Shown here in pieces: positions 3,153 through 64,000 of a stretch of 64,000 bases of DNA. Numbering within the stretch: position 1 is the stretch's first letter; each line of letters starts with the position of its first letter. A program made the translations under genes and the position numbers. A model generated the notes under the pieces. That model was not told the DNA's origin. It searched no databases and saw only the letters and a program-made list of their open reading frames with translations. The DNA lies in IMG/VR virus record IMGVR_UViG_3300027815_000006, positions 28,389 through 92,388 of that record, one strand, 5' to 3'. The stretch is from a virus.

Positions 3153-3947
3153 TCATGGGCGCCGAAGAAGGCGCCGTTGAAACAGACGATACCTCTGAAC
3201 TGACCGCAAGGGTACCAGAACCATTTTTCCTGGCCACCGCTGCCACTTGTAGAAGGTGGAATCCGTCAAGGCCCTGTGGAACTCCCGCCGCCGCCAGAGC
3301 TGTCGCACCCTGGACCGTACGGTCCGAAGGGTGGGGAGCCACAGAGGCCGCGCCTGCGTCGCCTTGGATCCGAACTCCATACGAAGCACCTGGAACGCCA
3401 AGTCCTCTACAACCCGGAGCCCCTCGGAGGGCCTGGGCATCGGCAATCGCACCCCAGCCTGAGACAACGCCGTGCGCCACGCCGTCGCGTCTGCCGCCCG
3501 GAGACGCCGTACCCCCGCCACCTCATCCCGCGTCACCGTCCGATACACCACCCGCGCCGCCCCCCTCGGGGGCTGAACAGGAAGCACATCGGTGGGCCAG
3601 GGAGAATACTGACGGAGAATGTCAATCACCTTCGATGGAGGCTGCCCCTTACGAGGCCGGACGTAGACGACCTGACTGGCCGTGTCGAGTTCCAGGAGCC
3701 GTTTTCGGAGAGGTTCCCCCCTGAGAACGATGGCGAAAGCCTCTCCGGGGCGGAACTTCGTACGCGCAAGAGACAGCCTGGAGGCGTAGGAGGCGTCCAT
3801 AGCGTCCGCCCCCTCTTGGAGGCGCTGGAGCGCGTCCCGCGCGAGGATCTCCAGGGCGCGAGCCTGAAGATGCTGCACCCGGAGGGTGAGCTCCTTGGCG
3901 ACCTTGAAGACCCGCTGGTTATTCTTGAGGGGCTGGATCTCCCACAC
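3153..3947 (-). CDS. Basic virion morphogenesis protein (neck/tail region)
   Basis: 264 aa in the neck operon, overlapping the upstream gene. Confidence 0.55.
   Translation of the reverse strand: MWEIQPLKNNQRVFKVAKELTLRVQHLQARALEILARDALQRLQEGADAMDASYASRLSLARTKFRPGEAFAIVLRGEPLRKRLLELDTASQVVYVRPRKGQPPSKVIDILRQYSPWPTDVLPVQPPRGAARVVYRTVTRDEVAGVRRLRAADATAWRTALSQAGVRLPMPRPSEGLRVVEDLAFQVLRMEFGSKATQARPLWLPTLRTVRSRVRQLWRRREFHRALTDSTFYKWQRWPGKMVLVPLRSVQRYRLFQRRLLRRP
3312..3325. repeat. Dispersed palindrome GGACCGTACGGTCC
   Basis: Perfect copy, intragenic. Confidence 0.95.
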
Positions 3948-4347
3948 GCTCTGCGTCCTTTCGTGCGTAGTAGGTCTCGACCTCCTCTACCAACCGGGCA
4001 AACCGCGAGGGGCCCGGGTACTGAACAAGACGTACCCGCCCGTGATGCAGGAGCACGAAGCGGCGCTTGGACGTTTGCAGCATAGGTAGGTGAGCCTCGC
4101 ACAGCCCCAGCTCCGCCAGGGAGTCCAGATCCCGAACGAGTTGCTGCACCTCCGCCCCACAGACGAAGCACAGCGCGTCCTTCCGCAGCGGACCCTTGTA
4201 CTCCGGGAACGCCATGCCCCGAAGGACGGAACCGCAGTGCGGGCGCCCGCAGGTAAGGTTACCGAGGGCCCTGGACGTGTGATGGTGCTCGCAGGACGCA
4301 CAGAACACCGAGAACCCGTCTGCCACCGCGCGCTCGAAGGGCGTCAT
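3919..4347 (-). CDS. Cys-rich (zinc-binding) hypothetical protein
   Basis: CASC, CGRPHC, CFVC and CEAH motifs; ATGA coupling with the upstream gene. Confidence 0.65.
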   Translation of the reverse strand: MTPFERAVADGFSVFCASCEHHHTSRALGNLTCGRPHCGSVLRGMAFPEYKGPLRKDALCFVCGAEVQQLVRDLDSLAELGLCEAHLPMLQTSKRRFVLLHHGRVRLVQYPGPSRFARLVEEVETYYARKDAERVGDPAPQE

Positions 4348-4925
4348 CGGCGCACGTCAATGCGCCGCTCCGGCGCGAAGTTGGTGACCCTGGTGAGGTT
4401 CAAGGCGATCCCTACGAAGGCCACGTCGGTGAACAGATGCCCCGCATCCGAGACATTCGTGATGGAGAAGTAGAAGCGTTCCCCCGGAAGGTTGTCCCCC
4501 TGCTGCGCCTCGTTGTGGTCGAAGAACGCGCTCCGCCAGAACCCGAGCACGTCCCCTTCGGAGGGCGCGTAGCCCCCCTCCGCCGCCCCGGAGTCCTCCC
4601 ACGCCTTGCGCGCGATCCACGCAGCTGCCGTCCAGGCTGCACGGTACCCCTCCTCACGGACCTCCGGGATGGCGTCCGGTGCGTCCACATGCGCAAACAG
4701 CTTGTAGGGCCCCGCAAACTCGCGCTTGAGGGACTCGCCGTAGAGCGGATCTCGTTGAGCCGCGGTGTGCTCCCGAAGCGCCCAGTATTCCACCTCCACC
4801 CCGGAGATGGCCGTAGACTCCTTCGCCCAGACATCCTGAATCTCCAGGTCCCGCCCATCCAGACGCAGGGGCCCGGAAGGGTAGGGCTTCACGAGGCGCT
4901 GGAACCGCATGGGACGCACCGGCAT
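4344..4925 (-). CDS. Head closure / neck protein (T4 gp14-like)
   Basis: DPLYGE motif and P-x-EGD motif; follows the gp13-like gene. Confidence 0.65.
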   Translation of the reverse strand: MPVRPMRFQRLVKPYPSGPLRLDGRDLEIQDVWAKESTAISGVEVEYWALREHTAAQRDPLYGESLKREFAGPYKLFAHVDAPDAIPEVREEGYRAAWTAAAWIARKAWEDSGAAEGGYAPSEGDVLGFWRSAFFDHNEAQQGDNLPGERFYFSITNVSDAGHLFTDVAFVGIALNLTRVTNFAPERRIDVRR

Positions 4926-4928
4926 GGG

Positions 4929-6193: not shown

Positions 6194-6868
6194 CTACGCC
6201 AGCGATTCTCCCGTGTCATCCCCCGAGGGGTCGGAACCTACCGTGGGAGTCGCTTCGGAGGCGGGCGGGGGTACCGGAGCCCCGAGAGCTCCGGCCCGCT
6301 GACGCAGCTCGGCGGCCTGAGCCTCCAGCGCCGCGGCCTGCCGATACAAAAAACCTCGCAGATCCTCGCCCTGCTCGCTGAGTACCCCCTGCGCCCGATG
6401 CGTCGCCTGTGGGGCCCCGCGGACAGCTTCGGACCGTACGGTCCGAGGTCGCGGGGGAGGAGAGAATACAGGCTCGTCCTCCGCATCCTCATCTTCGGCG
6501 GACGACGAGGACGAGGGTGCGGTGTTCGTCCGCAGTGTCGCGGCGAAATTGAATCCCCCCTTCGGAATAGAAGCGCGCACCCCCGGAGCACGGGCTTCTG
6601 GAGCCTGGGCCCCCGACGCGCGACCCTCCGTCACAGGCCGGGAGGGTGTCTCCGCGAACCCTCCCCCGAAATCGTCCTGCCCGTAGGGGTCCCTCTCCAG
6701 GGGCTCTACCTTGGAGAGGATGGCGTCCAGATCCATCCCCCGCGAAGACGATGCGCGCCGTACGGGCTGCCTGGACTCCTGGGTAGGAGAGGACTCCGCG
6801 CGGCGGTGAGGCCAGTCCTGCGTCCCGCCCCGCTTCAGAAGTGCTCGAAGCTCATCCGTTTTTCCCAT
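6194..6868 (-). CDS. Low-complexity hypothetical protein
   Basis: Likely start MGKTDELR at 6868, 7 nt after a TATGGT -10 box. Confidence 0.55.
   Translation of the reverse strand: MGKTDELRALLKRGGTQDWPHRRAESSPTQESRQPVRRASSSRGMDLDAILSKVEPLERDPYGQDDFGGGFAETPSRPVTEGRASGAQAPEARAPGVRASIPKGGFNFAATLRTNTAPSSSSSAEDEDAEDEPVFSPPPRPRTVRSEAVRGAPQATHRAQGVLSEQGEDLRGFLYRQAAALEAQAAELRQRAGALGAPVPPPASEATPTVGSDPSGDDTGESLA
6431..6444. repeat. Dispersed palindrome GGACCGTACGGTCC
   Basis: Perfect copy, intragenic. Confidence 0.95.
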
Positions 6869-9797: not shown

Positions 9798-10198
9798 CGC
9801 GGAGGCGTCTGCTTGACTCCCTCGGGATGCTCCGCACACCAGTGCTCCCCGAGGAAGGTCACGCCCCCCGGCAGGAAGGACAGCGTGGCCACGGCCTGCG
9901 CGACCTTCACGAAGGCGGCGGCACTCTCCCCGCGCTTCCCGCGGTAGAGGAACACGTCCCCCTTGGAGGCGATGTAGGACGCCAGCTCCGGGGCCGACTC
10001 CTGGAGAGCGCTCCAGGGAAGACTACGTAGACGCCCCTGCTCGATGAGCACGGCGGTGTACAGGAGGCCACGCGCCAGCTCCAGCGTGAGCGCCATGGCC
10101 CCTTCCGCGGTAAACGGAGGACCACCCCCGCCGCACCGAGGACACCGGACCGTACGGTCCGAGGACACGGACTCCGATGCGGAGGGGGTGTCAGCCAT
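9794..10198 (-). CDS. Hypothetical protein
   Basis: 134 aa, CPRC motif, coupled to the BtpA-like gene. Confidence 0.6.
   Translation of the reverse strand: MADTPSASESVSSDRTVRCPRCGGGGPPFTAEGAMALTLELARGLLYTAVLIEQGRLRSLPWSALQESAPELASYIASKGDVFLYRGKRGESAAAFVKVAQAVATLSFLPGGVTFLGEHWCAEHPEGVKQTPPR
10147..10160. repeat. Dispersed palindrome GGACCGTACGGTCC
   Basis: Perfect copy, intragenic. Confidence 0.95.
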
Positions 10199-12740: not shown

Positions 12741-12754
12741 GGACCATACGGTCC
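12741..12754. repeat. Palindrome variant GGACCATACGGTCC
   Basis: One mismatch, intergenic. Confidence 0.85.
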
Positions 12755-12800: not shown

Positions 12801-13292
12801 ATGAATCCCGAAGACCTGGAGAAGCTCAAGCAAACCGTCGATGTGCTGGCGCGCGTCTTCACGGCCATGGCGAACTCCCGGGCTCACCAGCTCGCCGCGG
12901 CCTCCCTCCATCTCCAGCACCACGCCCGAACCCTCCTGACCCCCGGAACGCCGCGCGCCGTCGTCACCCGCGCCACGGTCGCCAACCTCTTCGGCGCCGC
13001 GGCCTTCCTCCTCGAACTCCCCGACGAAGACGCTACCTGGGAGGCCGTTTCCGGAGAAGCCGCGGCGCTCCAGGAAACCCTGAAGTCCTCCGTCGAGGAA
13101 GCCGCGGCGCTGGGCCTGGAAGACTTCCCCTTCCACGCCGCCCTCAGTCGCACGACCGCACACCTTGCCCTGGCGGGCTTCCTCCCCCCGCACCTCCCCG
13201 AGGATATGTCCATGGAGGCGCGACACCGAGAGCTCCGAGCTGCCCTCCCGCCCCTCGCGCTCCTGTTCACCCTCGCCCAGGAACCCCCGTGA
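12801..13292 (+). CDS. Hypothetical helical protein
   Basis: 163 aa, protein-like composition. Confidence 0.6.
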   Translation: MNPEDLEKLKQTVDVLARVFTAMANSRAHQLAAASLHLQHHARTLLTPGTPRAVVTRATVANLFGAAAFLLELPDEDATWEAVSGEAAALQETLKSSVEEAAALGLEDFPFHAALSRTTAHLALAGFLPPHLPEDMSMEARHRELRAALPPLALLFTLAQEPP

Positions 13293-13326: not shown

Positions 13327-13340
13327 GGACCGTACGGTCC
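13327..13340. repeat. Dispersed palindrome GGACCGTACGGTCC
   Basis: Perfect, extends to 20 bp (ACT..AGT), between convergent genes. Confidence 0.95.
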
Positions 13341-13348: not shown

Positions 13349-13801
13349 CTACAGGGTGCCCTTGAGCCACGCCTGGAGCCCGTCCCGGACAGCCTTGTAG
13401 GCTTCCTCGGGCGTCTTCCCCTCGGTGCCCACCTTGAAGTCCCGGAGCTGCGTCGCATTGGTGACCCCAGTGGGGCTGCGCTCCATGGTGCTTCCGTCCA
13501 CGCGGCCATCGATGAGCCACAGCTCCGCGTACCCGAAACCCTCCGGGTCCGGCTTCGAGCCCGAGTAGTCCGCAGGCCGCTCCCCCCACCGGATGTAAAA
13601 CTGCCGCCGGAAGGACTGCTTCCCGGTCCCCCTGGAGGTCATCTTCACCGCCGTGGGCTTCGGGTTCAGCTCCTTCTTGAGGCGCGGAAGGAGTTTGGCC
13701 AGTGCGCCGTTGAACTCGTCCGCAGAGCCGGGGGCCGCTTCCTCCCACAGATGACGCCCGGAACACGCCCCGGCACAGTCAGAGTTCCAACACGCACGCA
13801 A
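13349..13801 (-). CDS. Hypothetical protein, possible internal head protein (start uncertain)
   Basis: Only the C-terminal ~150 aa of track ORF 13349..14110 looks globular; LWEEA near its start. Confidence 0.55.
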   Translation of the reverse strand: MRACWNSDCAGACSGRHLWEEAAPGSADEFNGALAKLLPRLKKELNPKPTAVKMTSRGTGKQSFRRQFYIRWGERPADYSGSKPDPEGFGYAELWLIDGRVDGSTMERSPTGVTNATQLRDFKVGTEGKTPEEAYKAVRDGLQAWLKGTL

Positions 13802-15086
13802 CCCCACCCGACGAACGCCTAGTCCGCGCGTAGCAGGCGTCACACTGTCCCTTCCGGAACGCGGGCCTGCCGCAAGCGCAGACCCCCGAAGAGTGCCGCT
13901 GATACTTGGGGTCCGCCCGCCGCTCCGCGGAGAGACATGTGCCGCACTTCCCCCGCGCCTGCACGGGATTCCCCCGCCCGCAGGGACAGACCGTACCTTC
14001 CCCGGTCCTCCGCGGCCTGGAAGCGTAGAAGCACGCCACGCAGAATCCCTTCTTCTTCGCCTCCGCCCCGCACGGACAACGCGCAGGAGCGACAGAGGGC
14101 GCGAGCACAACAGGCGCTACAGGCTCCTGCCCCCGCAGAGGCCTCCCGCGCCGCTGGCGCTCGTAGCACGCATCACAGAGGCCCTTGCGGTAGGCTGTGG
14201 CCCCGCACTGACACGCCCCCTGCACAGGCCGCCGATACCCCGGCTGGTGAATGCGCTCGGCGGAGAGGCAGGACCCACACAGCCCCTTCGCCCACACCTC
14301 CCGTGTGCAGCCCTCCGTCCCGCACACCGTCCCAGGCCCCGTCGTGTGTGTCTGCGTCGCCTCCCAGCACGCCCGACAGAGCCCCGACGCGGTGTACCTC
14401 GGGTTCCCGCAGGCGCAGGGTGTTTCCACGGCCTCCTGGAGCGCGCACATCTCGTGATAGCCCCCCATCCGATCTTCATTCCGGATGTGCTCGGGCGCGT
14501 CCTTGTAGAGCCAGTCCGCGAACTTCTGTGCGAGCGCCCCCGTGTAGGAAAGCTGAACCCGAACGTTCCCCGACTGGGGAACCACCGTCCGGTTGAGCTT
14601 CGGAACTGGGATCCCAAGCGCCTTCTCGATCTCCAACCCCAGGCGCTCCACGAAGGGCACGGCAATGGAGGTGTAGACCAAGGACCGCTGCTTGTTCCCC
14701 CGCGTCCTGGTCTTCTGGACGTAAATGCACCCGTCTGAGTCCCAGAGCCCCCGAATGAAGTGCGGTAGACACGCCTTCGGAAGATCCTCCGGCCACCGGA
14801 GCTTGTCTGACTTCTTCCCCCTGTACCCGTGGACCTGGAGCATCCAGTCAGACAGCGCCCGGGACCGCACAACCGCCACGAAGGCCCCCGGCGCGTGTTT
14901 GTGCTCGTAGAACGGGCGAGTGTCGTCCGTGATGAGTGCCCGCCACCGCGTGATGGTGGAGATAGCACCCGTGCACTGGAGAAGATACCCCGAAGAGGGA
15001 GCACACCCGTCGCCCAAGAAGATGCCGTGCCACCACGCCCGCTCGGGAGACCACGTTTGTAGGAGCTTCCAGTTGATGTTTGCCAT
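13779..15086 (-). CDS. LAGLIDADG endonuclease-domain protein with six Cys-rich zinc repeats
   Basis: Two LAGLIDADG-like motifs (WHGIFLGDG, FIRGLWDSDG) and six CxC..(K/S/R)GxCxxC repeats. Confidence 0.8.
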   Translation of the reverse strand: MANINWKLLQTWSPERAWWHGIFLGDGCAPSSGYLLQCTGAISTITRWRALITDDTRPFYEHKHAPGAFVAVVRSRALSDWMLQVHGYRGKKSDKLRWPEDLPKACLPHFIRGLWDSDGCIYVQKTRTRGNKQRSLVYTSIAVPFVERLGLEIEKALGIPVPKLNRTVVPQSGNVRVQLSYTGALAQKFADWLYKDAPEHIRNEDRMGGYHEMCALQEAVETPCACGNPRYTASGLCRACWEATQTHTTGPGTVCGTEGCTREVWAKGLCGSCLSAERIHQPGYRRPVQGACQCGATAYRKGLCDACYERQRRGRPLRGQEPVAPVVLAPSVAPARCPCGAEAKKKGFCVACFYASRPRRTGEGTVCPCGRGNPVQARGKCGTCLSAERRADPKYQRHSSGVCACGRPAFRKGQCDACYARTRRSSGGVACVLEL

Positions 15087-15111
15087 GCCACACAGCATAG
15101 CAGGTGCGACT

Positions 15112-19557: not shown

Positions 19558-19571
19558 GGACCGTACGGTCC
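19558..19571. repeat. Dispersed palindrome GGACCGTACGGTCC
   Basis: Perfect, intergenic, upstream of the head-operon promoter. Confidence 0.95.
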
Positions 19572-19608: not shown

Positions 19609-21384
19609 TCACGCGGGGGGCCTCGCCCGCAGATCATGGAGGAGGCTGCGAAGATGCTCCATCCGCGCCAGGAGCGCGGCATCCCCCCGAAGGAGCTTCT
19701 CCAGCTTGGCCTCCGCCCGGCGCTCCGCGTCTCGGCTGCCCTGGAGGAGCTCCCGCTCCGTGATGCGGCGAGGGACAGGCCGCAGACGCCCGGCAAAAGA
19801 ACGCCTGGGAGCACTCTCCTGGGACGCACCCCCCTTCGGAGGCTCATCAATCCCCTCGGGGCCCGGCACGAAGTCCGTCGGCGCCTCCTGCGGAGGCCCC
19901 TCATCCTCGTCCCCACCTCCACCCCCCGGGGGCCCCGCACCCCCCTCCCGCTGGAGGTCATCCCCCCTCTCGGTGAAGATCGTCTTGATCTCTTGATCCG
20001 TGAGGTTGAAGATGTGCGAGAGGACCCACCGCATCGAGACGTGCTCTCGCATCCTGGTTGCGAGATCCGCTCTGGCGTTGCGGACCTCTAGCTGCGCGAG
20101 CTCGAAGATCGCGCTGGGCGCCGTCAACGAGACACTAAAATCCACCGAGTAGGGATCAATCCCCAGGGCGGCGAAGTGCACCTGCGCGAGCTGCTTCAGC
20201 ACACGCGCCTCCTCCCGTTGCACACGAAGAATGACACGGGCGAAACGCACGTCCTGCGAGGAAAGCGTTGCGCGCACAACCCCCGTCTCATCTCCCATGT
20301 ACGCCCGCGGAACCTTCGCGGCAGCATAGAAAAGTGTACGGAAGTAGTCGGCGTCGTCCACCGACTGCCATACCGGGGAGGCGAGGGTCTCCACTCTCGT
20401 TTCATCCCCGTTACGGATCGGGATGAACACGTCCTCGTCCTGTGCGACCGGATCGAACTTCAACCCCAGACGCCCGGAGGAATCCACATAGCGCCGTTTA
20501 CGAACCTGCTGCCGGAAACGGTTGACGTAGGCCCATGCCTCCTGGTCGGTCTTGTTCCCGACGTTCAGGTAGTAGGCGTACCGCTCCGGCGCCCTGTCCA
20601 GACGGAAACGTAGAACCGCATCGTCCATGAGGAGCATCCTGCGCCAGACCCACCGGGCGGGCTCCAGGAACGGAGAGCCATACAGAGAGTACGGGTTGCG
20701 CCCCATGAGGCGCGCATGGATCACCTGCCACGGCTCGAAGGGGATGGGTCCCTCGGATCCCAACAGCTCCCGTCCGCGGGCAACAGCCTGCTTCCGACGC
20801 GCCGCGTCACGCTCGTACTTCTGTACGATCTCCTTGAACTCGTTTTCGGAAAATCCCCTCCCCCCGGAGAGGTCCTGCACGAAGCCCAGAAGATCCCCCC
20901 TTGAGTCCTCTACCCGACGCATGGACGCCGGAGGAAGCTGGTTCACACGAACCACCCCCACCTTGTCCGCGAGGATGGGTTCCGCATAGCCGTTGCCGTA
21001 CTTGATTAGGGAACGAACGTCCCCCCAGAGGCGGTCCTCGACGGCGAGATCCTTGTAGAGATCCTCCACGATCTTCTGGTATTTGCGCGTCTTGGCCGTC
21101 ACCGTGAGGACGCGCCCTGTCTGCCAGTCGGTCTGTGTGGTGTCGTCCGCCACGATGTCGAGGACCGCCGCCGCGAGGGGGTACTCATCCATGCACTCGG
21201 CGTCCCCGAAGATGGAGAGGAAGTCCCGCTCCATGCGCAGGTAGGACGCCACAGCGTCCGGCATGACGGAGTAGGAGGCGTCGGGCCCCACAACCCCCAC
21301 CGGAACCCCGCGGGTGGTGTCCTCCCCTGCGCCCCCGTCCAGCGCATCGGTCACCGTCCGTACGAGATCGTCCAAAACGCCCAT
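19609..21384 (-). CDS. Portal protein (T4 gp20-like)
   Basis: YGSPFLEPAR..W..MLLMDDAVLRFRLDRAPERYAYYLNVGN, EDVFIPIR, TRVETL, LSSQDVRFAR. Confidence 0.95.
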   Translation of the reverse strand: MGVLDDLVRTVTDALDGGAGEDTTRGVPVGVVGPDASYSVMPDAVASYLRMERDFLSIFGDAECMDEYPLAAAVLDIVADDTTQTDWQTGRVLTVTAKTRKYQKIVEDLYKDLAVEDRLWGDVRSLIKYGNGYAEPILADKVGVVRVNQLPPASMRRVEDSRGDLLGFVQDLSGGRGFSENEFKEIVQKYERDAARRKQAVARGRELLGSEGPIPFEPWQVIHARLMGRNPYSLYGSPFLEPARWVWRRMLLMDDAVLRFRLDRAPERYAYYLNVGNKTDQEAWAYVNRFRQQVRKRRYVDSSGRLGLKFDPVAQDEDVFIPIRNGDETRVETLASPVWQSVDDADYFRTLFYAAAKVPRAYMGDETGVVRATLSSQDVRFARVILRVQREEARVLKQLAQVHFAALGIDPYSVDFSVSLTAPSAIFELAQLEVRNARADLATRMREHVSMRWVLSHIFNLTDQEIKTIFTERGDDLQREGGAGPPGGGGGDEDEGPPQEAPTDFVPGPEGIDEPPKGGASQESAPRRSFAGRLRPVPRRITERELLQGSRDAERRAEAKLEKLLRGDAALLARMEHLRSLLHDLRARPPA

Positions 21385-42728: not shown

Positions 42729-43574
42729 CTACAGCGCGATGGTGGCGGAGTCCGCGACGGTCACCCCGTCGTACTTCGCCCAAGCTGCGCGGACCTCCTC
42801 GTGGAAGGCGCGCTGATTCGCCTCGGAGTGCAGGGTACCCACCCGCTGAATCGCAGCGCGGGCTGCCTCGATCATGTCGAGGGTGTACAGGCGGTGCCGC
42901 TTGGAGGTGGGCTTGAACGGCGTCTCGGGGAGGACCCCGGAGCGCTCCATCTGCGACACCGTGGAGATGTTCCGCTCCAACGCGAGGGCCATCGCCCCCA
43001 CCCGAAGGAGGTAGAGCCGCTGGCGCGTCCCGTCGGGGAAGAGCACGTCGCGCGCGAGGACCGGCACGTCCCGCACCCGCGGCACCGCCCGGTCCAGGTG
43101 GATCCGCCCCTTGGCCTGGAGAAGCCCCAGGATCGTCTCCATGTGCTCCACGGTGTACACCCGCTCCCCGGTCGTGCCCCAGAAGGACGGGCCTGGGATC
43201 ACCCCCCGCTCCTCCCAGCCCCGGAGTGCCTGGAGGGACACCCCCGCCACGAAGGCCAGAGCCGAAATGGGGTAGCCGTAGACCGTCGTCCGACGCTCCA
43301 CGCCCCCCTCCGTGATGAGCACCTCCACCGCCACAGGATCGTGGTCCCGGCGCAGGAGGTAGTCATTGACCTTCACCGCATCCCTCACCACCTGCTGCGC
43401 GGCGAGCTTCTCCTCCTTCATCCGGTTGCGCGCGTCCCGGTTGATCTTGAGAATGTGCGCCCGGTAGGCCGGATCGGTCCAATATCGCTGTGTACGCCGG
43501 ACGTTACGGTTCTCACCCCCCTCGCCTGCGTTCCACGCCGCATACCGAGTGGACTGCTGTGCTGGATCTGCCAT
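42729..43574 (-). CDS. Transcription regulator with two MerR-like HTH domains
   Basis: ISALAFVAGVSLQALRGWEERGVIP..ERVYT and VGAMALALERNISTVSQMERSGVLP..HRLYT. Confidence 0.8.
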   Translation of the reverse strand: MADPAQQSTRYAAWNAGEGGENRNVRRTQRYWTDPAYRAHILKINRDARNRMKEEKLAAQQVVRDAVKVNDYLLRRDHDPVAVEVLITEGGVERRTTVYGYPISALAFVAGVSLQALRGWEERGVIPGPSFWGTTGERVYTVEHMETILGLLQAKGRIHLDRAVPRVRDVPVLARDVLFPDGTRQRLYLLRVGAMALALERNISTVSQMERSGVLPETPFKPTSKRHRLYTLDMIEAARAAIQRVGTLHSEANQRAFHEEVRAAWAKYDGVTVADSATIAL

Positions 43575-43580: not shown

Positions 43581-43609
43581 AGCATAGCAACGTTCGGGCG
43601 ATGGGTCAA
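43581..43609 (-). promoter_or_regulatory. Leaderless-type promoter
   Basis: TTGACC-N17-TATGCT, 6 nt before ATG 43574. Confidence 0.75.
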
Positions 43610-47825: not shown

Positions 47826-49007
47826 TCAGAGTATAGCTAACTCCCGCTGATTGGCAACAGGCTGACGCGCTAGAAAATCCCGCAGAAACACTTCACCCTC
47901 GGGGGCCTCGCGCAGGAGGCGGGCGCGCTCCTCGTCCGGCAGTTCGTCGGGGTCTTTCCCCTCGGGGGTCTGCGCGATGCGCACGGGCATGACCGGACGT
48001 AGCGTCTTGTAGAAGTTATGGGCGATGACCCGCCCGGCATGATCCCCGTCGGGGAAGATGGTGATGGCGGAGAAGAGGCGGCGGAGCTGCCGAAGCTGCC
48101 ACCACGACAGCCAGGAGCCCATGGCGGCCACACAGGGATACCCGGCCTGCGCGACGGCCATGGCGTCGAAGTGCCCCTCGACCAGCACCCCCTCTCCCGA
48201 AGCCCCCGCTGCGTGGTCCTCCCCGAACAGCGCGAAGTCCCGTCGGAAACCCGTGGAGTGCAGGTACTTCGGGGGCTGCCCCCGCTCGCACCGTGGACAA
48301 CGCTTGCGGTCCTTGCCCCCGAGATGGACCGTGAGGTAGGTCACGTTGCACCGCGGACAGAGGAAGTCGTTCGCGCGGCGCCCTGTGATCGCCAGAAGCC
48401 CCCCGTGCTCGTTGCGCACAGGGACGGCAAGACGTTGTGCGCGCGGGTGCCACAGAACCCCGAAGCGGTCCAGAGTCTCGCGGGTGATGTACCGCTTCTT
48501 GAACTGGTGCCACTCCATCACGTCCTCCGGGAGGAACCGGAAGTGCCACAGCTCGCTCTCGGGGAGAGGCGGGGGCTGCACCTGGGGGTCCGTCGCCACC
48601 GGACCGTACGGTCCGGGCTCGGCCTTGAGTCCGAGGCGCTGCGCACGGAGTTCCTGGTAGACGACCTCGGGCTCCTTCGAAAGGCGGTCCAGCCGCGCCT
48701 GAAGCGCCGCGAGCGTCTCCCGGTTGTGCGCCTGGATGAACCGCTGCACTTCCGGATGGCGCGTGTTGCTGTGCCCCTCCACCGCCCAGAGAAGCTCGAA
48801 GAGGGAGCCTCCGATGCCGCAGCCAAAGCACCGGAAGCGGGACTCTCTGTCCGGGTCTATGGAGATCCCGAAGGACGGGTTGAGGTCGTGCCCGCCTTTG
48901 TGCCGCCACCGCGCCAGGGGACAGGTTCCGTTGACGTAGCGATGCCCGCGCTTGAGCTGCCTGGAGCCGAGGGCCCGCAGGACGAAGGACACCTCGTCGG
49001 CGTTCAC
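47826..49007 (-). CDS. DNA primase (CHC2 zinc finger plus TOPRIM)
   Basis: CPL..H..D.NPSF..CFGC, VLVEGHFDAM, FPDGDHAG, KDPDE. Confidence 0.92.
   Translation of the reverse strand: MNADEVSFVLRALGSRQLKRGHRYVNGTCPLARWRHKGGHDLNPSFGISIDPDRESRFRCFGCGIGGSLFELLWAVEGHSNTRHPEVQRFIQAHNRETLAALQARLDRLSKEPEVVYQELRAQRLGLKAEPGPYGPVATDPQVQPPPLPESELWHFRFLPEDVMEWHQFKKRYITRETLDRFGVLWHPRAQRLAVPVRNEHGGLLAITGRRANDFLCPRCNVTYLTVHLGGKDRKRCPRCERGQPPKYLHSTGFRRDFALFGEDHAAGASGEGVLVEGHFDAMAVAQAGYPCVAAMGSWLSWWQLRQLRRLFSAITIFPDGDHAGRVIAHNFYKTLRPVMPVRIAQTPEGKDPDELPDEERARLLREAPEGEVFLRDFLARQPVANQRELAIL
47830..47857 (-). promoter_or_regulatory. Strong sigma70-type promoter
   Basis: TTGCCA-N16-TATACT, 6 nt before GTG 47823. Confidence 0.75.
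48601..48614. repeat. Dispersed palindrome GGACCGTACGGTCC
   Basis: Perfect, in the primase linker. Confidence 0.95.
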
Positions 49008-50446: not shown

Positions 50447-51406
50447 TCAGAGCTGGACCGCACGGTCCAGCTCCTCCTCGGACAGCCCCACCCTGCCAGG
50501 GAGGTTGTAGAGCCACTTACCCGGGGGATCGAAACGCAACCGGGAGCCCTGCACGTAGGAAGGCTCCCTCTCGACGGAGAGCCAGTGGCGCTGAAGATCC
50601 TCCGCGATACGCCCCGTGGTGTTGGAGCCCGCGAAGATATCCAGCACGCAGTCCCCGGGCTCCGTCAGGAGCTTCACGAAGAACTCAGGGAGTGCTCCTG
50701 GAAACCGCGCCGGGTGGGGCTTGAGCCCGACGGCTTTGCAGCGCCGGAGATACTCGGAGGTGGCCTCCGAGTGCGAGAGCGTGAGCATGTTGGAGGGGAT
50801 CGAGCCACCGAGATCCTGGGCGAACCCCTCCCCTACCACATGCCCCGAAGGGCTGCGCCGAAGACGTCTCCCCGTGGAGATGAGATCGCGCATGGCTTCG
50901 GAGTATGGCTGGAGTACGCGGCGGGTGTCGGCCTTTGGCCATGGGGTCTTGGAAAACCAGTAGACAAGCTCCGTAGCGTCCTTGAGGCGGAGCCTTCGCA
51001 CGGTGACCCACTCCGCGGGCATGGGGAGCTTCGTCGGGGAGTACCAGAAACACTCCTGCGCGAGGTGCCACCCCCACTCCCTGCACATCCTCAAGGGTAA
51101 CTCCAGGTGTACGAGCGAGCGCGTCGGCGTACCCCGCTGATACGCCCCGCCGATGTTCACCACGAAACTTCCCGTGGACCTGAGCACCCGCTGAACCCCG
51201 CGCGCAAAGGGCTCGAACCACCGGAGGTACTTGCTGGAAGATTCGTTGCCGTACGCCTTCTGCGTGAGAAGCGCGTAGGGAGGGGAAGTGAACACGAGGT
51301 CCACGCTATCCGGAGGGAGCTGAGAGAGGAGCCAGCGCGCGTCCGCGCAGAACGCCCGCCCCCACGCCGTCTCGTAGGCGGCTGGAACCTGGACCGACGG
51401 CAGCAC
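50447..51406 (-). CDS. beta-class DNA methyltransferase (m4C/m6A, PvuII-like)
   Basis: VDLVFTSPPY, HPARFP, VLDIFAGSNTTG. Confidence 0.92.
   Translation of the reverse strand: MLPSVQVPAAYETAWGRAFCADARWLLSQLPPDSVDLVFTSPPYALLTQKAYGNESSSKYLRWFEPFARGVQRVLRSTGSFVVNIGGAYQRGTPTRSLVHLELPLRMCREWGWHLAQECFWYSPTKLPMPAEWVTVRRLRLKDATELVYWFSKTPWPKADTRRVLQPYSEAMRDLISTGRRLRRSPSGHVVGEGFAQDLGGSIPSNMLTLSHSEATSEYLRRCKAVGLKPHPARFPGALPEFFVKLLTEPGDCVLDIFAGSNTTGRIAEDLQRHWLSVEREPSYVQGSRLRFDPPGKWLYNLPGRVGLSEEELDRAVQL
50455..50468. repeat. Palindrome variant GGACCGCACGGTCC
   Basis: One mismatch, extended GAGCT/AGCTC arms, methylase 3' end. Confidence 0.85.
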
Positions 51407-53867: not shown

Positions 53868-56483
53868 TCACTCACTCGCCCACGGATCCCCGGAGACGGG
53901 CTCCGGGAGGGCTACGGAGGTGCTCTCCGGGAGCGCTTCTGAGGGCGCGGGGAGAGGCAGCTCCGGGACGGGGGTGTCCCCGACGAAGCGCGGCGCGTGC
54001 CAGGGCCCGAACGCCTCCTTGGGCGCAGAAGACCTCTTGGAGGTCCCACCGGGGAGGAACCCGTTGAGCTTCACCCGGGCGGCGTCCAGGATCGGGCCGC
54101 GCTTGTCCGCGGGAATCACCTGCACGTCCTGGGTGATGCCGTGGTAGGCGAGGTGGACCTCCGCCTGCGCGTGCGCGAGACCCATCTCCGCGGGGATGGG
54201 CTTACCTGAAGCGCGGAGGGTATCCATCGCGCGACAGATCTTCAGGGCCCCGAGCACCTGCACCGCGGTCGGGCAAATGTCCGCGTGGCAGGCGAAGAAC
54301 AGCTTGAGGGGCGGATGCCCCACAGCCTTGAACCGGGGCCGGTAGAACGTGTCCCACAAGCGCACGAAGAACCGCACCCCCGCGCTCACGACGGAGGTCG
54401 CCTTGGCGCCGCCCCCGTAGGCCGCGAAGATCCCCTTGAGCTGGGCGTGCTCCTTCGCACCCCAGAGCGGCAGAAGGAGCGTCGGGTCCAGAGCCTCCAT
54501 CGCCGTACGCCACGCCGTCTCCACCTGCTGATACCACGCGAGCGCCGCAGGATCCCGCGGCGCGGACATGGATCGCCGCGCCCCCTTCCGCGCCCCAGCC
54601 TTCCCAGCCCCCCGGGAGGGAGAACGCTCCGGCGTCACACACGCCGTGGATGCGCGCTTCGCGGCGAGTGTCTTGCGCAACCCGGCCAGCTTGGCGTCGA
54701 GCGCCTTCGGCGTGTCCTGCGCTGCGGGGGGCACCACCCGAAGGGAAGGTCGGACCGTACGGTCCAACTTCGAGGACGCCTCGGAAGCGCCAGACACCTC
54801 GCAGTCCTCCGGCGGACCCTCATCTTCCTCGGACACCTTCCGGAGCCCCGCGGGCCCAGGCAAACCCCCCTCCCCGAAGGTCGCCTCATCCCCCACCTCG
54901 TCCACTCCCAGAAGATCCTCCAGGGACGCATCTCCCCCGGCGCCAAGAAACACCCCCTTGCGGGCGCCCGAGGACCCCGGGACGGGAGAGAGGGCGGGAG
55001 CCCCCCCTTCCCGCGACTCTACCCCCCGCCGCGGTCCGGCGACGCCCCCCTCCGTGTTCTTCCCCCCGGGCACCACCCGAAGGGGCCCCTGGGTGATGCG
55101 CGCCAGCCGACGTAGAAGGGCGGGGTCTGTCGGATCGGTCATGGAGTCCTCCGTGGGGATGGGGGTGGGGGGTAGGGGGGTAGGGGGGTAGGGGGCACGT
55201 CCCGGGGCCGAAGGCGCCGGGACTGTCTCTGCGCCGCAGGTCATAGGATCGGTCTCGGGCTCCTCTTGGGTAGGCTCCTCCAGGAAATCCCAGGAGGTGT
55301 CCTTCTCCCCGACCGGGTTACCTCCCGGGGCGACGGCCACGGTGCCATCCTGGGTGCTCAGTGGAACCGCGGCGCTCCCCACGGTCACGGTACCGACGCA
55401 AGGTGCCCCCGAGGGGGCCACACCGAGCACGTTCCTCACACCAAGTGGCGCCCCTTGAGCTGCCTGGGGAAGCGAAGCCTGAGAAGCAGCGTCGCCAGGA
55501 GGTGTCCCTGGAGTCGAAGTCGGTACCCTGAAGGTTACTGAGGACGAAGACTCCGAAGGAGTCGAGGACTCAGTAACCTGAAAGGGTACTGACTGAGACG
55601 TAAGGGATACCTCCTCTCCCTTATCTCTTAGCGTTCCACTCCCTTCTCTCTTCTGGCGCGGCCCTGGGGTGTCCGAACCGCCCGCTGCGGCGCTGCCCCC
55701 CGAGGGGACCCCTCCCCCCCTCCCCACCCCTCCCGAACCCCCTGGGGGGTGGAGGTACCAGGGACCCCGGGGAGCCCTCGCCACGAGGGCCGCTACGTCC
55801 GGGCAGTCCCTCCCTGCGTAGGGGAGCGCCCGTGGCGGCGGTGGGGGAGACACTGTAGGTGTCTGTGCGGGGGTGTCGGGTTTCGGAGGCCCCGCGGTAC
55901 GCGGCGGGAGGGGGTTGCCGTCCGGGTCCACGTCGTCCGGGTCCCCGACCTCGGGGGCATCGTCGTAGGGGACGAGGACGGCTTTCGGATCTCCGTCGGC
56001 CACGCGGCGCAGGAGGGTCTTGTAGAAGGTGGTGCTCTCGATGAGCCGCCGGGCGGCGGCCTTGTCATGGTCCGCGATGCGCTTGTCCATGAAGGTGTCC
56101 AGGAAGAGCTGCTCCTTCCCCTGGGCGTCCAGGTACCCGAGGATGTAGATGTGGTTGCGCCACTTGTCCGCGATCCGGGTGATGACCCCGAGGTCCAGGA
56201 GCACCTTCAAGCTCCGCCGAACCTGGGAGGACCCCACGTCCGACATCTCCGCCAGGGTGTCCTGCGTCGCCCGCGCTACCAAAAGCCCTCGCGCCCACCA
56301 AAAGGACAGCGCCCCGCGGCGAGCCCTCCAGATGTGGATGAGGAGCGCCTGATAGACGCAGTAGTTCACCGCGCCCCCCAACGCCCCCACTACCCCCGCC
56401 CGGATGTTGTCGTGGTACACCTTCGTGAAGTACCCCTTCCTCCGCGGATCCCCCTCCGCCTCCAAAGCCTCGGCTGCACTCAC
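53868..56483 (-). CDS. Putative replication initiator (N-terminal wHTH, long disordered linker)
   Basis: ATQDTLAEMSDVGSSQVRRSLKVLLDLGVI HTH; position upstream of loader and helicase. Confidence 0.7.
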   Translation of the reverse strand: MSAAEALEAEGDPRRKGYFTKVYHDNIRAGVVGALGGAVNYCVYQALLIHIWRARRGALSFWWARGLLVARATQDTLAEMSDVGSSQVRRSLKVLLDLGVITRIADKWRNHIYILGYLDAQGKEQLFLDTFMDKRIADHDKAAARRLIESTTFYKTLLRRVADGDPKAVLVPYDDAPEVGDPDDVDPDGNPLPPRTAGPPKPDTPAQTPTVSPPPPPRALPYAGRDCPDVAALVARAPRGPWYLHPPGGSGGVGRGGGVPSGGSAAAGGSDTPGPRQKREGSGTLRDKGEEVSLTSQSVPFQVTESSTPSESSSSVTFRVPTSTPGTPPGDAASQASLPQAAQGAPLGVRNVLGVAPSGAPCVGTVTVGSAAVPLSTQDGTVAVAPGGNPVGEKDTSWDFLEEPTQEEPETDPMTCGAETVPAPSAPGRAPYPPTPLPPTPIPTEDSMTDPTDPALLRRLARITQGPLRVVPGGKNTEGGVAGPRRGVESREGGAPALSPVPGSSGARKGVFLGAGGDASLEDLLGVDEVGDEATFGEGGLPGPAGLRKVSEEDEGPPEDCEVSGASEASSKLDRTVRPSLRVVPPAAQDTPKALDAKLAGLRKTLAAKRASTACVTPERSPSRGAGKAGARKGARRSMSAPRDPAALAWYQQVETAWRTAMEALDPTLLLPLWGAKEHAQLKGIFAAYGGGAKATSVVSAGVRFFVRLWDTFYRPRFKAVGHPPLKLFFACHADICPTAVQVLGALKICRAMDTLRASGKPIPAEMGLAHAQAEVHLAYHGITQDVQVIPADKRGPILDAARVKLNGFLPGGTSKRSSAPKEAFGPWHAPRFVGDTPVPELPLPAPSEALPESTSVALPEPVSGDPWASE
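54752..54765. repeat. Dispersed palindrome GGACCGTACGGTCC
   Basis: Perfect, in the initiator linker. Confidence 0.95.
55518..55594. other. Long imperfect inverted repeat, candidate origin element
   Basis: Nested arms AGTC/GACT, GTACCCT/AGGGTAC, AGGTTACTGAG/CTCAGTAACCT and GACTCC/GGAGTC in a lower-GC patch. Confidence 0.5.
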
Positions 56484-57683: not shown

Positions 57684-58352
57684 TCAGAATGGGGGTGCGT
57701 CTGGGGGTACGGGCTTCACGGGGACAGGGAGGTTGAGGTGCTGTCGCAGAATGTCCATGTCTGTGAGGAGCTCCCCACGGATGACCTGAATCGTGCGGGC
57801 ATCCAATCCTGCGAGCATCGCCGGGTGCCACGTCACCCGCGCGGGGATCCCCTCCCACTGAAACCACTGATTCCGTAGGTATCGCAGATCCCGGCGCACC
57901 CCGAGGAGCTGAGAAGCCGCGATGCCTCCGAGGAGGAGAATGGCGGCGGGGTGCAGAAGCCGAAGGGCTTGCTCCAGGTGAGGTAGGCACTTGGAGAGCT
58001 CCCCGGGGGAGGGCGCTCCGTACCCCTGACAGGCCACGGCATTTCCGATCCAGGTCTGCGCCTCGGGAATCCCCACCTCCTGAAGAACCTCCCGCAGACA
58101 CAGGGTCTCCCGCTGTCCCAGCGGAGAGGTAGGGCTCTTGCCCACGGGCGCCTCCCCCAGGAGCACCAGAAGAGGCGCCGTCGCGCCGCCCCCGAGGAAG
58201 GCCAGCTCGCGAGTCCTGTGCCGCGCACAGAGTACGCAGGACTGGACCGTACGGTCCAACCGCTGAAGCCCCGCCAGGGCATCGCCGTCTCGCAGTACCG
58301 ATTTGGCCAGGAGCGGGAGCTGGTTGGGATCCCCAGGCTTCTTCGCCTTCAC
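57684..58352 (-). CDS. Uracil-DNA glycosylase family 4-like
   Basis: CVLC, LLGEAP, NAVAC, KCLPHL, LLGGIA, TWHPA. Confidence 0.85.
   Translation of the reverse strand: MKAKKPGDPNQLPLLAKSVLRDGDALAGLQRLDRTVQSCVLCARHRTRELAFLGGGATAPLLVLLGEAPVGKSPTSPLGQRETLCLREVLQEVGIPEAQTWIGNAVACQGYGAPSPGELSKCLPHLEQALRLLHPAAILLLGGIAASQLLGVRRDLRYLRNQWFQWEGIPARVTWHPAMLAGLDARTIQVIRGELLTDMDILRQHLNLPVPVKPVPPDAPPF
58244..58257. repeat. Dispersed palindrome GGACCGTACGGTCC
   Basis: Perfect, in the UDG N-terminus. Confidence 0.95.
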
Positions 58353-61732: not shown

Positions 61733-62057
61733 TCCCAGGTCTCCGAGTCGAACGAAACGGCGATGGGCCCATCGCCTACACCACTGTCCCTGGGTGGACA
61801 ACCTCCCCGGCCTTCTACCGGCTCCGTCAGCTTTTCAGGGCCTTCGGCGGTTCTACCCAGAGGTGGCCACCTCTGAGCTTCCCCGTGGTTGTGAGGGTTG
61901 CTCCCCGTGCCGAGTACGCGCGCAAAGCAACGGCCCTCACCGTGCCGCTTGAACTACCCCCGCGCCGCGAGCGGAGCAACGGGGCCGTAGGGGCATCACC
62001 CCCTACGGGAGGGGCCGACCGGGCCCCGTATCAGGGTAGGGCGCCCCGGCGAGGACG

Positions 62058-63254
62058 CTACAGAATTCTGTCTCGACGGACCAGGAGGACCGTCCCCACG
62101 ATCACGCGGCCTGCGAGCACGCTCGCGCCGGGGTTGAGTTTGGAGTCCTTCTTGAGTCTCCCTTCCTCGTCCACGACAAGGAGGACCTCCTTGTTGCGGA
62201 CGGGCACCAGCTCGATGTAGCCCCCGACGAAGCCCTGAAGCTCCTCCAGGGTGTAGTCCGTGCCGTTCGCCGGACGGACCTCCCGCACCTCCCCTTCGGG
62301 GGTGATGAGCCTGTCCGGAGAGATCTCTGGCTTGGAGGTCATAGTGCGGGCTCCCCCCCACCACGCATCGGGCTCCGCAGACACGAAGGACAACCTCGGG
62401 TCCGTGTGCAGCGCAGCGCCCATGGGGATGTGACGGAGGAAGCGCTCCCCGTCCGCGTCGAGCGCGTGGAGGCGGTCCCTGAGCGCGGCGCCCTCGTGTC
62501 GCAGGGAGAGCACCCACTGTACGCAGGCCAGATCGTCCCGATGATGAAGGGTGTTCAGGATCTCCTCCGTGGAAATTGAAGTCTCGAAGCGGAGAAGCTC
62601 CTCCGTAAGGAGCCCCGCATCTCGCACGGCGATGGCCTCGATGGCCGCCGCGAGCTCCCTCGGGATTTGCTTGACCACCCGGCGTGCCCGCTCCACGGGC
62701 GTAATGCCCCCAGACAGGACAAGACGCCGCTCCGTGGGCGTCGTGGGCGCCCACAACCGCAGGATCGCCCCCAGCGCGACAAACCTGTCCAAGGGGAGCG
62801 GGGACGCCGCCCGCTCCATCACGAGCGAGAACAGCCAGGGCGCGCAGCCTACGCACTCCTGGCCGCCAAACAGCCCCGGCACGTCCAACGTCAGGAGCCC
62901 GGAGCTCCAAGGAGAGGACGAAACCGGACGAACGGAGGGGCTGTTCCGCCGCACCTCGCACACCACCCAGCCGTCCACCTCCATGAAGGCGAGGAACTCG
63001 CGGGTGTCGCTGACGACATGCCGCGCGTGGCTGTACCCGGGTCCGTCGGGCAGCTCCCGGGTAGCTCCGCGGAACACCCCGAGGGTGTCCTCCGTCTGAA
63101 GCTCCAGGGCGGCGAGAAGAGGCTGGGGGAGGGTGTGTGCCATGGGAGGGAGTGCCCCCGAGAAGAAGCGCCCTGGGTTGGTCTTGTTGACGAAGTAACC
63201 CGGGGCCGTACTGCGGGGGCAAGGGGAGTATGGGGACTCGGAGAGGCGCTGCAA
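62058..63254 (-). CDS. Hypothetical protein with C-terminal DUF3846-like domain
   Basis: TLEELQGFVGGYIE..LVVDEEGRLK..LNPGAS..IVGTVLLV; an internal ATG at 62342 could start the domain separately. Confidence 0.65.
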   Translation of the reverse strand: MQRLSESPYSPCPRSTAPGYFVNKTNPGRFFSGALPPMAHTLPQPLLAALELQTEDTLGVFRGATRELPDGPGYSHARHVVSDTREFLAFMEVDGWVVCEVRRNSPSVRPVSSSPWSSGLLTLDVPGLFGGQECVGCAPWLFSLVMERAASPLPLDRFVALGAILRLWAPTTPTERRLVLSGGITPVERARRVVKQIPRELAAAIEAIAVRDAGLLTEELLRFETSISTEEILNTLHHRDDLACVQWVLSLRHEGAALRDRLHALDADGERFLRHIPMGAALHTDPRLSFVSAEPDAWWGGARTMTSKPEISPDRLITPEGEVREVRPANGTDYTLEELQGFVGGYIELVPVRNKEVLLVVDEEGRLKKDSKLNPGASVLAGRVIVGTVLLVRRDRIL

Positions 63255-63262
63255 TCAAGAAG

Positions 63263-64000
63263 CTACGCCGTGCGTAGCTTCTCTTCCAGGCACTCCAGGG
63301 CAGAGACGAGGCGCTCGGAGTCGGACTCGAAGGCGTAGACCACGGGCCCCGTGTACTCCCAGAGGGCCTCGCGGAGGAGCTCCCACTCGGTCGAGGAGGC
63401 GTACCCGAGGAGGAGCACGGCCCGGAGCCTCCCCCGGCGCAGCGTGTTCAGGAGGTCCGGGAGCGCGACATAGAACGTGGCCTTCAGGTCCAGGGCGGTC
63501 AGCGCATCCCAGACGTACCCGGAGATGGGCGCGCCCCAGAGTCCGAAGCTCGCTGGGGTGGGGCACGCCGCACGGAGGAGGGGGAAGCTCTTGTCCGTGT
63601 AGCCCTTGAGGTTTCCGGAGAGCAGCGGAGCCCCCAACCCCTGACGGCCCCCCACGGCGAGGTGCCGTAGTTCTCGGATGGTTCTGGCCTGGGCGATGAG
63701 GGCCCGCCAGGGGGCGTCGTCCTCGCGGGAGATGCCCTGGATGTACCCGAGGGAGGGCCGCGCCTCGACCTGCTTTGCCAGGAGCCGGATGGTCTTGCGG
63801 ACATCTTCGGGAGGGAGGCCCTGCGCCACGAGGAGGCGGGCCCTGGCGGCAAACTCCGTCAGCCACGCGGCGTACGCCTCCCGGTCCTCCGGCGGGGCAG
63901 CGGCCACCGCGCGGACCTCCGCGTACAGCACCTCCGCCCCCTCCCTCAGTAGGACCGTACGGTCCAGCCCCTCGGCGGACTCCTCGGGCTCGCCTGTCGC
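63263..64000 (-). CDS. Hypothetical protein (partial, open at the right edge)
   Basis: The frame stays open to position 64000. Confidence 0.6.
   Translation of the reverse strand, partial: ATGEPEESAEGLDRTVLLREGAEVLYAEVRAVAAAPPEDREAYAAWLTEFAARARLLVAQGLPPEDVRKTIRLLAKQVEARPSLGYIQGISREDDAPWRALIAQARTIRELRHLAVGGRQGLGAPLLSGNLKGYTDKSFPLLRAACPTPASFGLWGAPISGYVWDALTALDLKATFYVALPDLLNTLRRGRLRAVLLLGYASSTEWELLREALWEYTGPVVYAFESDSERLVSALECLEEKLRTA
63952..63965. repeat. Dispersed palindrome GGACCGTACGGTCC
   Basis: Perfect, intragenic. Confidence 0.95.

Follow-up and report, generated by a model that had tools for sequence, protein, structure and literature searches.

A stretch of 64,000 bp from the viral contig IMGVR_UViG_3300027815_000006 (the window in what follows; bases 28389-92388 of a 92,388-bp IMG/VR record with a completeness estimate of 59%, here called G000) carries many exact copies of one palindrome, GGACCGTACGGTCC, set out along the chromosome at regular distances, between genes as well as within them. 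Our interpretation, held with modest confidence, is that these copies are double-stranded DNA sites of a dimeric, sequence-specific protein encoded by the phage itself, the reader most likely being an orphan protein of the ParB/Noc/KorB type. Directly established are the sites, their statistics, the private and fast-evolving character of their sequence and their co-occurrence with genes for the ParB_N domain.

The original prediction, made from the window alone, had placed 14 exact and two one-mismatch copies in it, and a search allowing up to one mismatch returned the same set: GGACCGTACGGTCC stands exact at every one of the 14 positions, and the diverged copies are GGACCATACGGTCC at 12741 and GGACCGCACGGTCC at 50455. 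In 100 dinucleotide-preserving shuffles of the window, the palindrome did not occur at all. The content of guanine plus cytosine (GC), put earlier at about 69%, had to be corrected to a measured 66.7%. The full contig holds 23 exact copies, and four more are found on L037, a separate 14.4-kb IMG/VR contig which overlaps the right end of the first over 133 bp at 99% identity. Both were handled as a single stretch of 106.6 kb, to which G000 refers from here on, and this stretch carries 27 perfect copies (0 expected) plus three centre variants (GGACCA-TA-, -CA- and -TG-). The palindrome is described as one of 14-16 bases, and the site coordinates given below span 14 bp. As had been noticed before, 13 of the 14 exact copies in the window are preceded by a pyrimidine (Y) and followed by a purine (R). 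When all 30 copies and variants are pooled and their flanks symmetrised, pyrimidine makes up 90%, and the flanks lengthen the motif to YY-GGACCGTACGGTCC-RR. Among 2.9 million viral contigs, more than one copy of GGACCGTACGGTCC was found, outside the G000 contig, on L037 only. A host scan (one genome for each of 185,579 species) gave at least 120 matches, and those listed are single copies only, one each in scattered high-GC genomes, as chance predicts; no host array was seen among them, and the motif, as far as these viral and host scans reach, looks private to the phage; a host repeat had been named by the original prediction as its own possible refutation. An assembly or adapter artefact is unlikely because copies are read in frame within genes having orthologues, because the separate contig L037 carries the motif as well, and because the ParB-like protein encoded in the window is recorded also on a 156-kb contig.

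Placement and spacing point to selection acting on the sites as DNA. With approximate gene calls based on third-position GC, 13 of the 27 copies extend at least partly outside the called genes, compared with 10.8% of all 14-bp windows (P=1.3e-6), which amounts to an about fivefold intergenic enrichment. Copies within genes are likewise in excess, since 14 are observed where the codon-preserving count proposed earlier, now carried out as synonymous-codon shuffles within genes, expects 0.07. These copies impose rare codons on their genes (CGT, 11% of Arg; GTA, 7% of Val; GGA and GGT, 10% each of Gly), and they distort the encoded peptides, DRTV occurring 10 times against 0.6 expected and RTVR six times against 0.9. 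All three reading frames are used, giving DRTV, RTVRS and GPYGP, the last of these in a primase linker. Hence, the earlier claim that selection works on the DNA and not on the protein is borne out by rare codons, distorted peptides, use of all frames and intergenic enrichment alike. Alignment with a relative's orthologues places the in-gene copies in variable stretches free of insertions and deletions; judged from these alignments, they arose via substitution and not via insertion, and the same indel-free alignment ruled out a mobile mini-element. The gaps between the 27 copies of G000 are more regular than under random placement (coefficient of variation 0.61 vs 0.96, P=0.004), at a mean pace of about one copy per 4 kb. 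One site is kept by selection roughly every 4 kb, tolerant parts of genes being used where an intergenic position is impossible.

Within the window, intergenic copies lie at 10147-10160 (30 bp past a stop codon and 50 bp before the next start, on the minus strand), at 19558-19571 (downstream of the portal gene 19609-21375(-)), at 25001-25014 (between the genes for DNA polymerase A, 25029-26864(-), and an amidase, 24207-24998(-)) and at 42693-42706 (22 bp past the stop of a MerR-like gene), while the copy at 13327-13340 stands between the convergent genes 12801-13292(+) and 13349-13807(-). The copy at 6431-6444 is probably intergenic too, the 84-residue open reading frame (ORF) around it being weakly supported. 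The site at 38764-38777 lies 45 bp upstream of the most likely start of the ParB-like gene and falls inside the N-terminus of its product under a longer, 282-residue database call. Among the copies within genes, those at 3312-3325, near the 3' end of gene 3153-3947(-), which has orthologues in relatives, and at 45748-45761, in the N-terminal part of the intein-bearing helicase 43606-45984(-), both read RTVRS; the copy in the linker of primase gene 47826-49007(-) is at 48601-48614, and that at 58244-58257, in the N-terminal part of the UDG-family gene 57684-58352(-), reads LDRTVQ. The remaining exact copies occupy the last codons of ORF 26903-27232(-) (26917-26930), the inside of an 865-residue gene, 53868-56465(-) (54752-54765), and the gene 63263-64000(-), which runs off the window end (63952-63965). 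The one-mismatch copies span 12741-12754 and 50455-50468, the latter at the 3' end of an N6/N4 methyltransferase gene. The sole long gap, of 11.8 kb, corresponds to a copy-free giant gene for a protein of 2,915 residues at 27294-36041(-). Its counterpart in the relative G001, encoding 3,585 residues, has one copy of that genome's motif near its 5' end and a gap of 13.7 kb. GC is lower in the giant-gene region (63-66%), and low GC together with missing copies would fit recent acquisition or fast change of this gene.

Relatives of the phage, found via the capsid protein, the MerR-like protein and a UvrD-like helicase, were scanned de novo for palindromes over their whole genomes, and a different palindrome was found in each of G001, G004, G005, G007, G008 and G015. 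G001 (148 kb), obtained by the capsid-protein search, is syntenic with G000 at 30-58% protein identity; GGACCGTACGGTCC is absent from it, and it carries instead 27 copies of GAGYCA-YR-TGRCTC, usually within cGGAG...CTCCg, where a reversed-pattern control gave 0. This array repeats the behaviour of the first, with even spacing (P=0.00015) and intergenic enrichment (P=1.3e-6). Further motifs are GGCAAT-YR-ATTGCC in G004 (148 kb, 11 copies), GGCAGT-CG-ACTGCC in the complete G005 (191 kb, 20-22 copies), cGGCA-NN-CG-NN-TGCCg in G007 (81 kb, 15 copies), GTGCAGA-CG-TCTGCAC in G008 (56 kb, five copies) and ACCGCAACAC-GTGTTGCGGT in the complete G015 (93 kb), whose 30 copies form the densest even array. 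Spacing is even in G004 (P=0.005), G005 (P<5e-5), G008 (P=0.025) and G015 (P<1e-4), and not even in the degenerate set of G007. Two arms around a central pyrimidine-purine step are the common layout of all relatives' motifs, and a 6+2+6 arrangement, with a central dinucleotide that is always YR (TA, CA/TG or CG), is common to them and G000. Motifs which change from relative to relative while the layout is kept form the pattern expected if a homologous or analogous reader shifts its specificity over time.

The best candidate for this reader is the product of 37948-38718(-), a protein of 256 residues in which a ParB_N domain with a GGEYRWRAA box is followed by a helical domain. It matches Pfam PF02195 (ParB_N) with 35.5 bits against a cut-off of 26.3, and the ParB-like group of PHROGs at 2e-32. 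The box aligns with AGERRWRAA of canonical ParBs, so that GxxRxxA is present while the first Arg of ERR is replaced by Tyr. Foldseek returned Noc, ParB, PadC and KorB as top matches of the structural model, which aligns over some 190-240 columns with the N-terminal and DNA-binding domains of Noc, ParB and KorB, and the nearest ESM Atlas clusters consist of ParB_N proteins of about 250 residues that are almost wholly viral.

Co-occurrence with ParB-type genes, proposed earlier as a check, was assessed by searching every genome for ParB_N genes, and the ParB-like class does track even arrays across the related phages. Of 12 related genomes that could be classified, all five with even arrays (G000, G001, G004, G005 and G015) encode ParB_N proteins. 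The domain is absent from G006, G009, G011, G012, G013, G016 and G017, and none of these seven, five of which are 98-100% complete, has an even array; the first five of them have no array of any kind. Under a lenient table, in which every palindrome set counts as an array, the split is 6/0 vs 2/5 (Fisher P=0.016); under a strict one, restricted to even arrays, it is 5/0 vs 0/7, or 1/792 by arithmetic. G000 and G001 have the 250-residue type and G015 two 250-residue forms, G004 combines a canonical ParB protein with a helix-turn-helix (HTH) domain and a ParB-HTH-MT-A70 fusion, and G005 has the same fusion and a small form. This involvement of three ParB subtypes argues for repeated association. 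In the earlier list of possible readers, the ParB-like protein is thus the one supported by co-occurrence with even arrays, the MerR-like protein showing no such association and no ribbon-helix-helix protein being found among the 62 window proteins scanned.

Several observations weigh against assigning the sites to this protein. A gap of nine residues removes the first helix of the canonical ParB HTH, in a region where the structural model has a predicted local distance difference test score (pLDDT) of 55-78; the C-terminal half is modelled at low confidence, with pLDDT <55 over the last third. The sample behind the association is small and its genomes are related, hence phylogenetically non-independent, and the ParB_N proteins of the array genomes are not one orthologous family, so that what the arrays are associated with is a class of domains rather than a single protein. 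Palindrome sets also exist in G007 and G008, contigs of 42% and 29% completeness, with a weak ParB_N match or none. No site of G001 lies within about 800 bp of the ParB-like orthologue. Finally, where ParB_N domains adjoin methylases or polyvalent proteins, as they do in G000, a role as nuclease or NTPase module is often preferred to one in site reading. A site adjoining the reader gene was also considered as a rule and dropped as inconsistent across genomes; the sites 45 bp upstream of the ParB-like gene in G000 and, in G015, at the 5' end of the ORF holding one ParB_N gene nevertheless count in favour of the assignment.

Although the candidate is of ParB type, G000 is not a member of the ParABS class, since canonical parS and ParA are both lacking: GTTTCACGTGAAAC has 0 copies in G000 including L037, and ParA (PF13614, PF01656) was found neither there, G000 being incomplete, nor in G001, G004 and the complete G005, the only weak ParA-profile match falling inside the DnaB gene. 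With no ParA encoded even in a complete relative, classical ParABS segregation is unlikely. The earlier proposal that a phage protein coats or organizes the chromosome through these sites gains from the duplex, dimer-type character of the sites and from ParB co-occurrence but loses segregation as a probable purpose. The earlier remark on a lack of likeness to parS is valid for G000, yet the sister motif of G001 has inner bases (TCAC|ATGA) that match seven of the eight in parS (TCAC|GTGA); the motif of G015 is centred on CACGTG, as parS is, and both likenesses count towards a reader of ParB type.

What kind of site the palindromes represent can be approached from their own variation. If copies acted as RNA or single-stranded DNA hairpins, that is, as terminators, processing or stability elements or primosome signals, pairing within one strand should matter; a 5-bp GC stem with a GUAC loop is possible, and about half of the copies are located just past stop codons of minus-strand genes. 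In G001, however, where all genes are on one strand, positions 4/11 of the sense strand read T-A five, C-G eight, T-G seven and C-A seven times, against 5.3, 8.3, 6.7 and 6.7 predicted for independent half-sites, so that a C-A mismatch occurs in seven of 27 copies and is as frequent as the U-G alternative. Beyond a sequence preference within one to two flanking positions, flank complementarity was found in none of the genomes, and an apparent extended flank pairing did not survive counting. Given this independent variation of the half-sites and the lack of covariation in the flanks, the copies look like double-stranded targets of a dimeric protein, as far as sequence can tell, and not like hairpins; many of them are mid-gene, a T-run is absent, and even spacing is not expected for terminators. 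Taken together, a hairpin function appears highly improbable. The palindromes could also be enzyme targets, subject to site-specific nicking or cutting, to methylation by a ParB-methylase or to recombination as hotspots, the central YR step being the point of action and nicking a possible seed for recombination-dependent replication or clamp loading. Such a role is suggested by the YR centre in every genome, which recalls cleavage and crossover centres, by the ParB-HTH-MT-A70 fusions of G004 and G005, by the neighbours of the ParB-like gene of G000, which are a weak methylase-like gene and one for a polyvalent protein, by the fact that ParB_N domains can be nucleases, and by a core recombination module of exonuclease, resolvase and RecA-like protein. 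A YR centre is equally typical of parS and of the Noc-binding site (NBS), though, and 14-16 specified bases far exceed the usual targets of methylases or nickases. When the related genomes were checked for a methylase conserved with the motif, as restriction-modification would entail, none was found: the relatives lack any homologue of the N6/N4 methyltransferase of G000, 50447-51406(-), and G001 has no MT-A70. We consider enzymatic targeting improbable.

As to the reader, two alternatives to the ParB-like protein were weighed. The MerR-like protein of 42729-43574(-), with basic N-terminal helices and two tandem winged-HTH modules, might read the sites in the manner of RacA of Bacillus subtilis. 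It is a syntenic, core member of the replication module in G000, G001, G004, G005, G007 and G008 (two MerR-type modules in the first three, one in the others), its model matches only DNA-binding domains of the MerR family, RacA included, all of them weakly (E>=0.01), its recognition helix is nearly identical in four genomes with GCA-core motifs, and a site follows just past its stop codon in G000 and G004. Against this, homologues detected by hidden Markov model (HMM) at E about 1e-62 exist in G011 and G013, which are complete and free of arrays, a weaker one exists in the array-free G009, and HMM searches found none in the complete G015; the likeness of the recognition helices simply tracks phylogeny. 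This lack of array association in the widened sample rules the protein out as general reader, and as reader in G000 it has been demoted to a rather improbable candidate. Conserved in the family are a basic N-terminal helix region (YF..YYEKNK...RY..DPEYR) and, following it, one or two MerR-type winged-HTH modules; in a search of 16 related genomes and contigs the gene was present in 10, and it always lies between the RecA-like gene and a helicase. A different DNA-binding protein of the phage, encoded for instance in the roughly 35% of the genome beyond the contig and L037, is an unlikely reader too, but the least unlikely of these alternatives; ParB_N would then co-occur with the arrays only through the same accessory gene set. 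Of a genome of about 156 kb, the available sequence covers about 107 kb; most of its proteins could not be assigned to a family, and the ParB_N proteins of the array genomes, as noted, are not orthologous. Gene profiling, however, revealed no other gene common to the array genomes and absent from the array-free ones, its yield being shadow ORFs, a HAD-domain protein and a small zinc-ribbon protein only, and the ParB_N association spans three subtypes of the domain.

If the ParB-like protein is indeed the reader, its predicted target is YGGACCGTACGGTCCR, and a dimer would load at each palindrome as ParB, Noc and KorB do. Possibly, it would then close as a clamp in a manner dependent on cytidine triphosphate (CTP) and slide or spread over a limited distance from the site, and by a regular row of such loading sites the whole chromosome could be covered; binding, clamping and the purpose of the array are inferred. 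Clamps of the ParB family that use CTP are known to serve the segregation of chromosomes and plasmids (ParB), nucleoid occlusion (Noc) and plasmid-wide silencing (KorB). Candidate purposes are the silencing or timing of transcription, anchoring, compaction and the marking of phage DNA as self. A palindrome every few kb, maintained despite rare codons and altered proteins, implies a function which needs the whole genome covered in what is a large phage of lytic type, and a code that changes with the lineage implies a label which must be private. By extension, an orphan ParB-type protein with its private, even palindrome array might constitute a general, hitherto undescribed phage system that covers the whole chromosome as a label of self and non-self, a generalization we offer tentatively and consider doubtful. 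Fast change of the site code between lineages would let each phage mark its own DNA only, and the label could ensure that protection, compaction, replication or packaging act on phage DNA and not on that of the host or of rival phages. Whole-genome marking of this kind is barely described for viruses. Confirmation of the reading by a ParB-type protein would account for the repeat of Cluster O mycobacteriophages, without explanation for a decade, give a role to many partner-less ParB-like genes of phages and supply orthogonal protein-site pairs for engineering; with about ten related genomes, five of them carrying different even arrays, the comparative set offers material for specificity swaps.

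The phage itself has no close cultured relative, megablast giving no match and the best capsid protein identity being below 30%. Pfam and PHROGs assign structural genes for a gp23-type major capsid protein, a gp20-type portal, an S77 prohead protease and terminase, and replication genes for DNA polymerase A, a RecA-like protein, a Cas4/RecB-like exonuclease, a resolvase, the intein-bearing helicase, primase, a DnaB-type helicase, a UDG-family protein and the N6/N4 methyltransferase. The giant protein is adjoined by an LPD1 protein and the ParB_N protein, and neither an integrase nor a repressor was seen in G000. The intein of helicase 43606-45984(-) comprises a Hint domain and a LAGLIDADG homing endonuclease. 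Gene 13779-15098(-), next to the capsid gene, is about 80 residues longer than its G001 orthologue and has a LAGLIDADG match, so it probably holds a second intein or an inserted endonuclease, to judge from its sequence. The methyltransferase 50447-51406(-), a clear Pfam match (8.8e-41), was probably acquired recently. GAC-N3-GTC (Tth111I-type) occurs 0 times in the contig plus L037, where other arm spacings occur 18-86 times, 0 times in G006, seven times in G005, which is low, and 147 times in G001; this looks like restriction-site avoidance tied to particular hosts. A similar avoidance of GCA-N6-TGC in G000 and G001 was discarded on account of a poor null model and small counts. On L037, a non-palindromic word, GAAATGTCACA, occurs five times (GGAAATGTCACA in four of the five) and is possibly a promoter element of an early region.

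Several further features of the relatives' sites were recorded. In G001, the orientation of the asymmetric centre depends on position: on the sense strand it is CACATG at nine of 12 intergenic sites and CATGTG at 12 of 15 in-gene sites. Three of the intergenic sites have their ATG in the frame of the following gene, the GGAG of the motif being a possible ribosome-binding site, and the perfect-palindrome centre CG is found in 0 of 27 copies despite 71% GC. G004 contains a second palindrome, CAAAG-TTT-CTTTG, in 12 copies between 45215 and 132628, nine of them with TTT on the plus strand; copies are located just upstream of one ParB_N gene and just downstream of the other. Apparent inverted terminal repeats of G004 turned out to be a 99-bp end repeat of assembly type. 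G005 carries canonical bacterial parS, TGTTTCACGTGAAACA, or a one-end variant at 50277, 83875, 126798, 140581 and 165445, while canonical ParB and ParA were both absent from this complete genome, and it may borrow host ParB or SMC loading through these copies. Two complete genomes without ParB_N have longer, sparse palindromes whose spacing is not even, namely G016 with 12 copies of AGTTGTAACCTC|GAGGTTACAACT (P=0.18) and G017 with six paired copies of GTGTGGCCCC|GGGGCCACAC (P=0.9); these are possibly operators or terminators of another kind.

Among known systems, the closest published case is that of the Cluster O mycobacteriophages, Corndog and its relatives, which have a 17-bp dyad repeat, 5'-TGTTCGG-N3-CCGAACA (PMC4351075, PMC6439249). 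It is present in 34 copies, 14 of them intergenic, is absent from the host and has remained without explained function, although its authors suggested a dimeric protein as binder (PMC4351075). These phages also encode a ParB-like protein (PMC6439249). Both systems show a private palindrome in exact copies distributed genome-wide, more than 30 in Cluster O with about 40% intergenic and the rest in genes, and G000 likewise has tens of exact copies, in and between genes, an array shown by no other phage among the viral contigs scanned. They differ in layout (7+3+7 with an A/T-rich centre vs 6+2+6 with a YR centre) and in the phage, a Mycobacterium siphovirus as opposed to a large phage of gp23 type; the second palindrome of G004 has the same layout of arms around a 3-bp A/T centre as the Corndog repeat. 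The Cluster O paper did not analyse whether spacing is even, how the motif diverges among relatives or whether it co-occurs with ParB. Stoperators of Cluster A mycobacteriophages and the dispersed operators of phiC31 and P1 also amount to tens of copies of a repressor site that co-evolves with its repressor. Unlike the palindromic and evenly spaced sites of G000, however, stoperators and P1 C1 operators are asymmetric, oriented with transcription and part of temperate phages with an immunity repressor. ParABS, with parS TGTTTCACGTGAAACA, resembles G000 in having a ParB_N domain that contains a box of GxxRxxA type and a palindromic site of 16 bp centred on YR, but its sites are few and near the origin, whereas those of G000 number in the tens and are spread evenly, with neither canonical parS nor ParA. 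RacA binds 14-bp ram palindromes, TGACGCCGGCGTCA, at 25 chromosome regions (PMC4914108). Its binding serves to anchor or compact the chromosome. Its GC-rich sites and its MerR-like winged HTH with a coiled coil find a parallel in the long helices of the MerR-like protein of G000, a family which, however, does not track arrays among the relatives.

Noc, the ParB paralogue of Bacillus subtilis, acts at chromosome level and without ParA through some 70 scattered NBS palindromes of 14 bp, many of them in genes. As in G000, a protein of ParB type is present without a ParA partner, and Noc structures are the best fold matches of the ParB-like model; the NBS, ATTTCCCGGGAAAT, is nevertheless unrelated in sequence to the motif of G000, and Noc is a cellular protein tied to the membrane by an N-terminal amphipathic helix, whereas no N-terminal extension is evident in the G000 alignment. 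Plasmid RK2 carries 12 OB operators, roughly one per 5 kb, of 13 bp each, TTTAGCSGCTAAA. Its arrangement resembles that of G000 in that a ParB-family protein is combined with many copies of one short palindrome over a mobile genome. KorB, the RK2 protein in question, is a CTPase sliding clamp and global repressor which slides up to about 1.5 kb from its site (PMC11790492), and its loading at OB followed by sliding provides a working model for why regular spacing would matter. On the other hand, the OB sequence is unrelated, OB sites adjoin promoters instead of lying within genes, KorA and IncC/ParA act together with KorB, no such partner being found in G000, and KorB is a weak match in both structure and sequence. 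KorB with OB and Noc with the NBS are the closest mechanistic models for the palindrome array of this phage.

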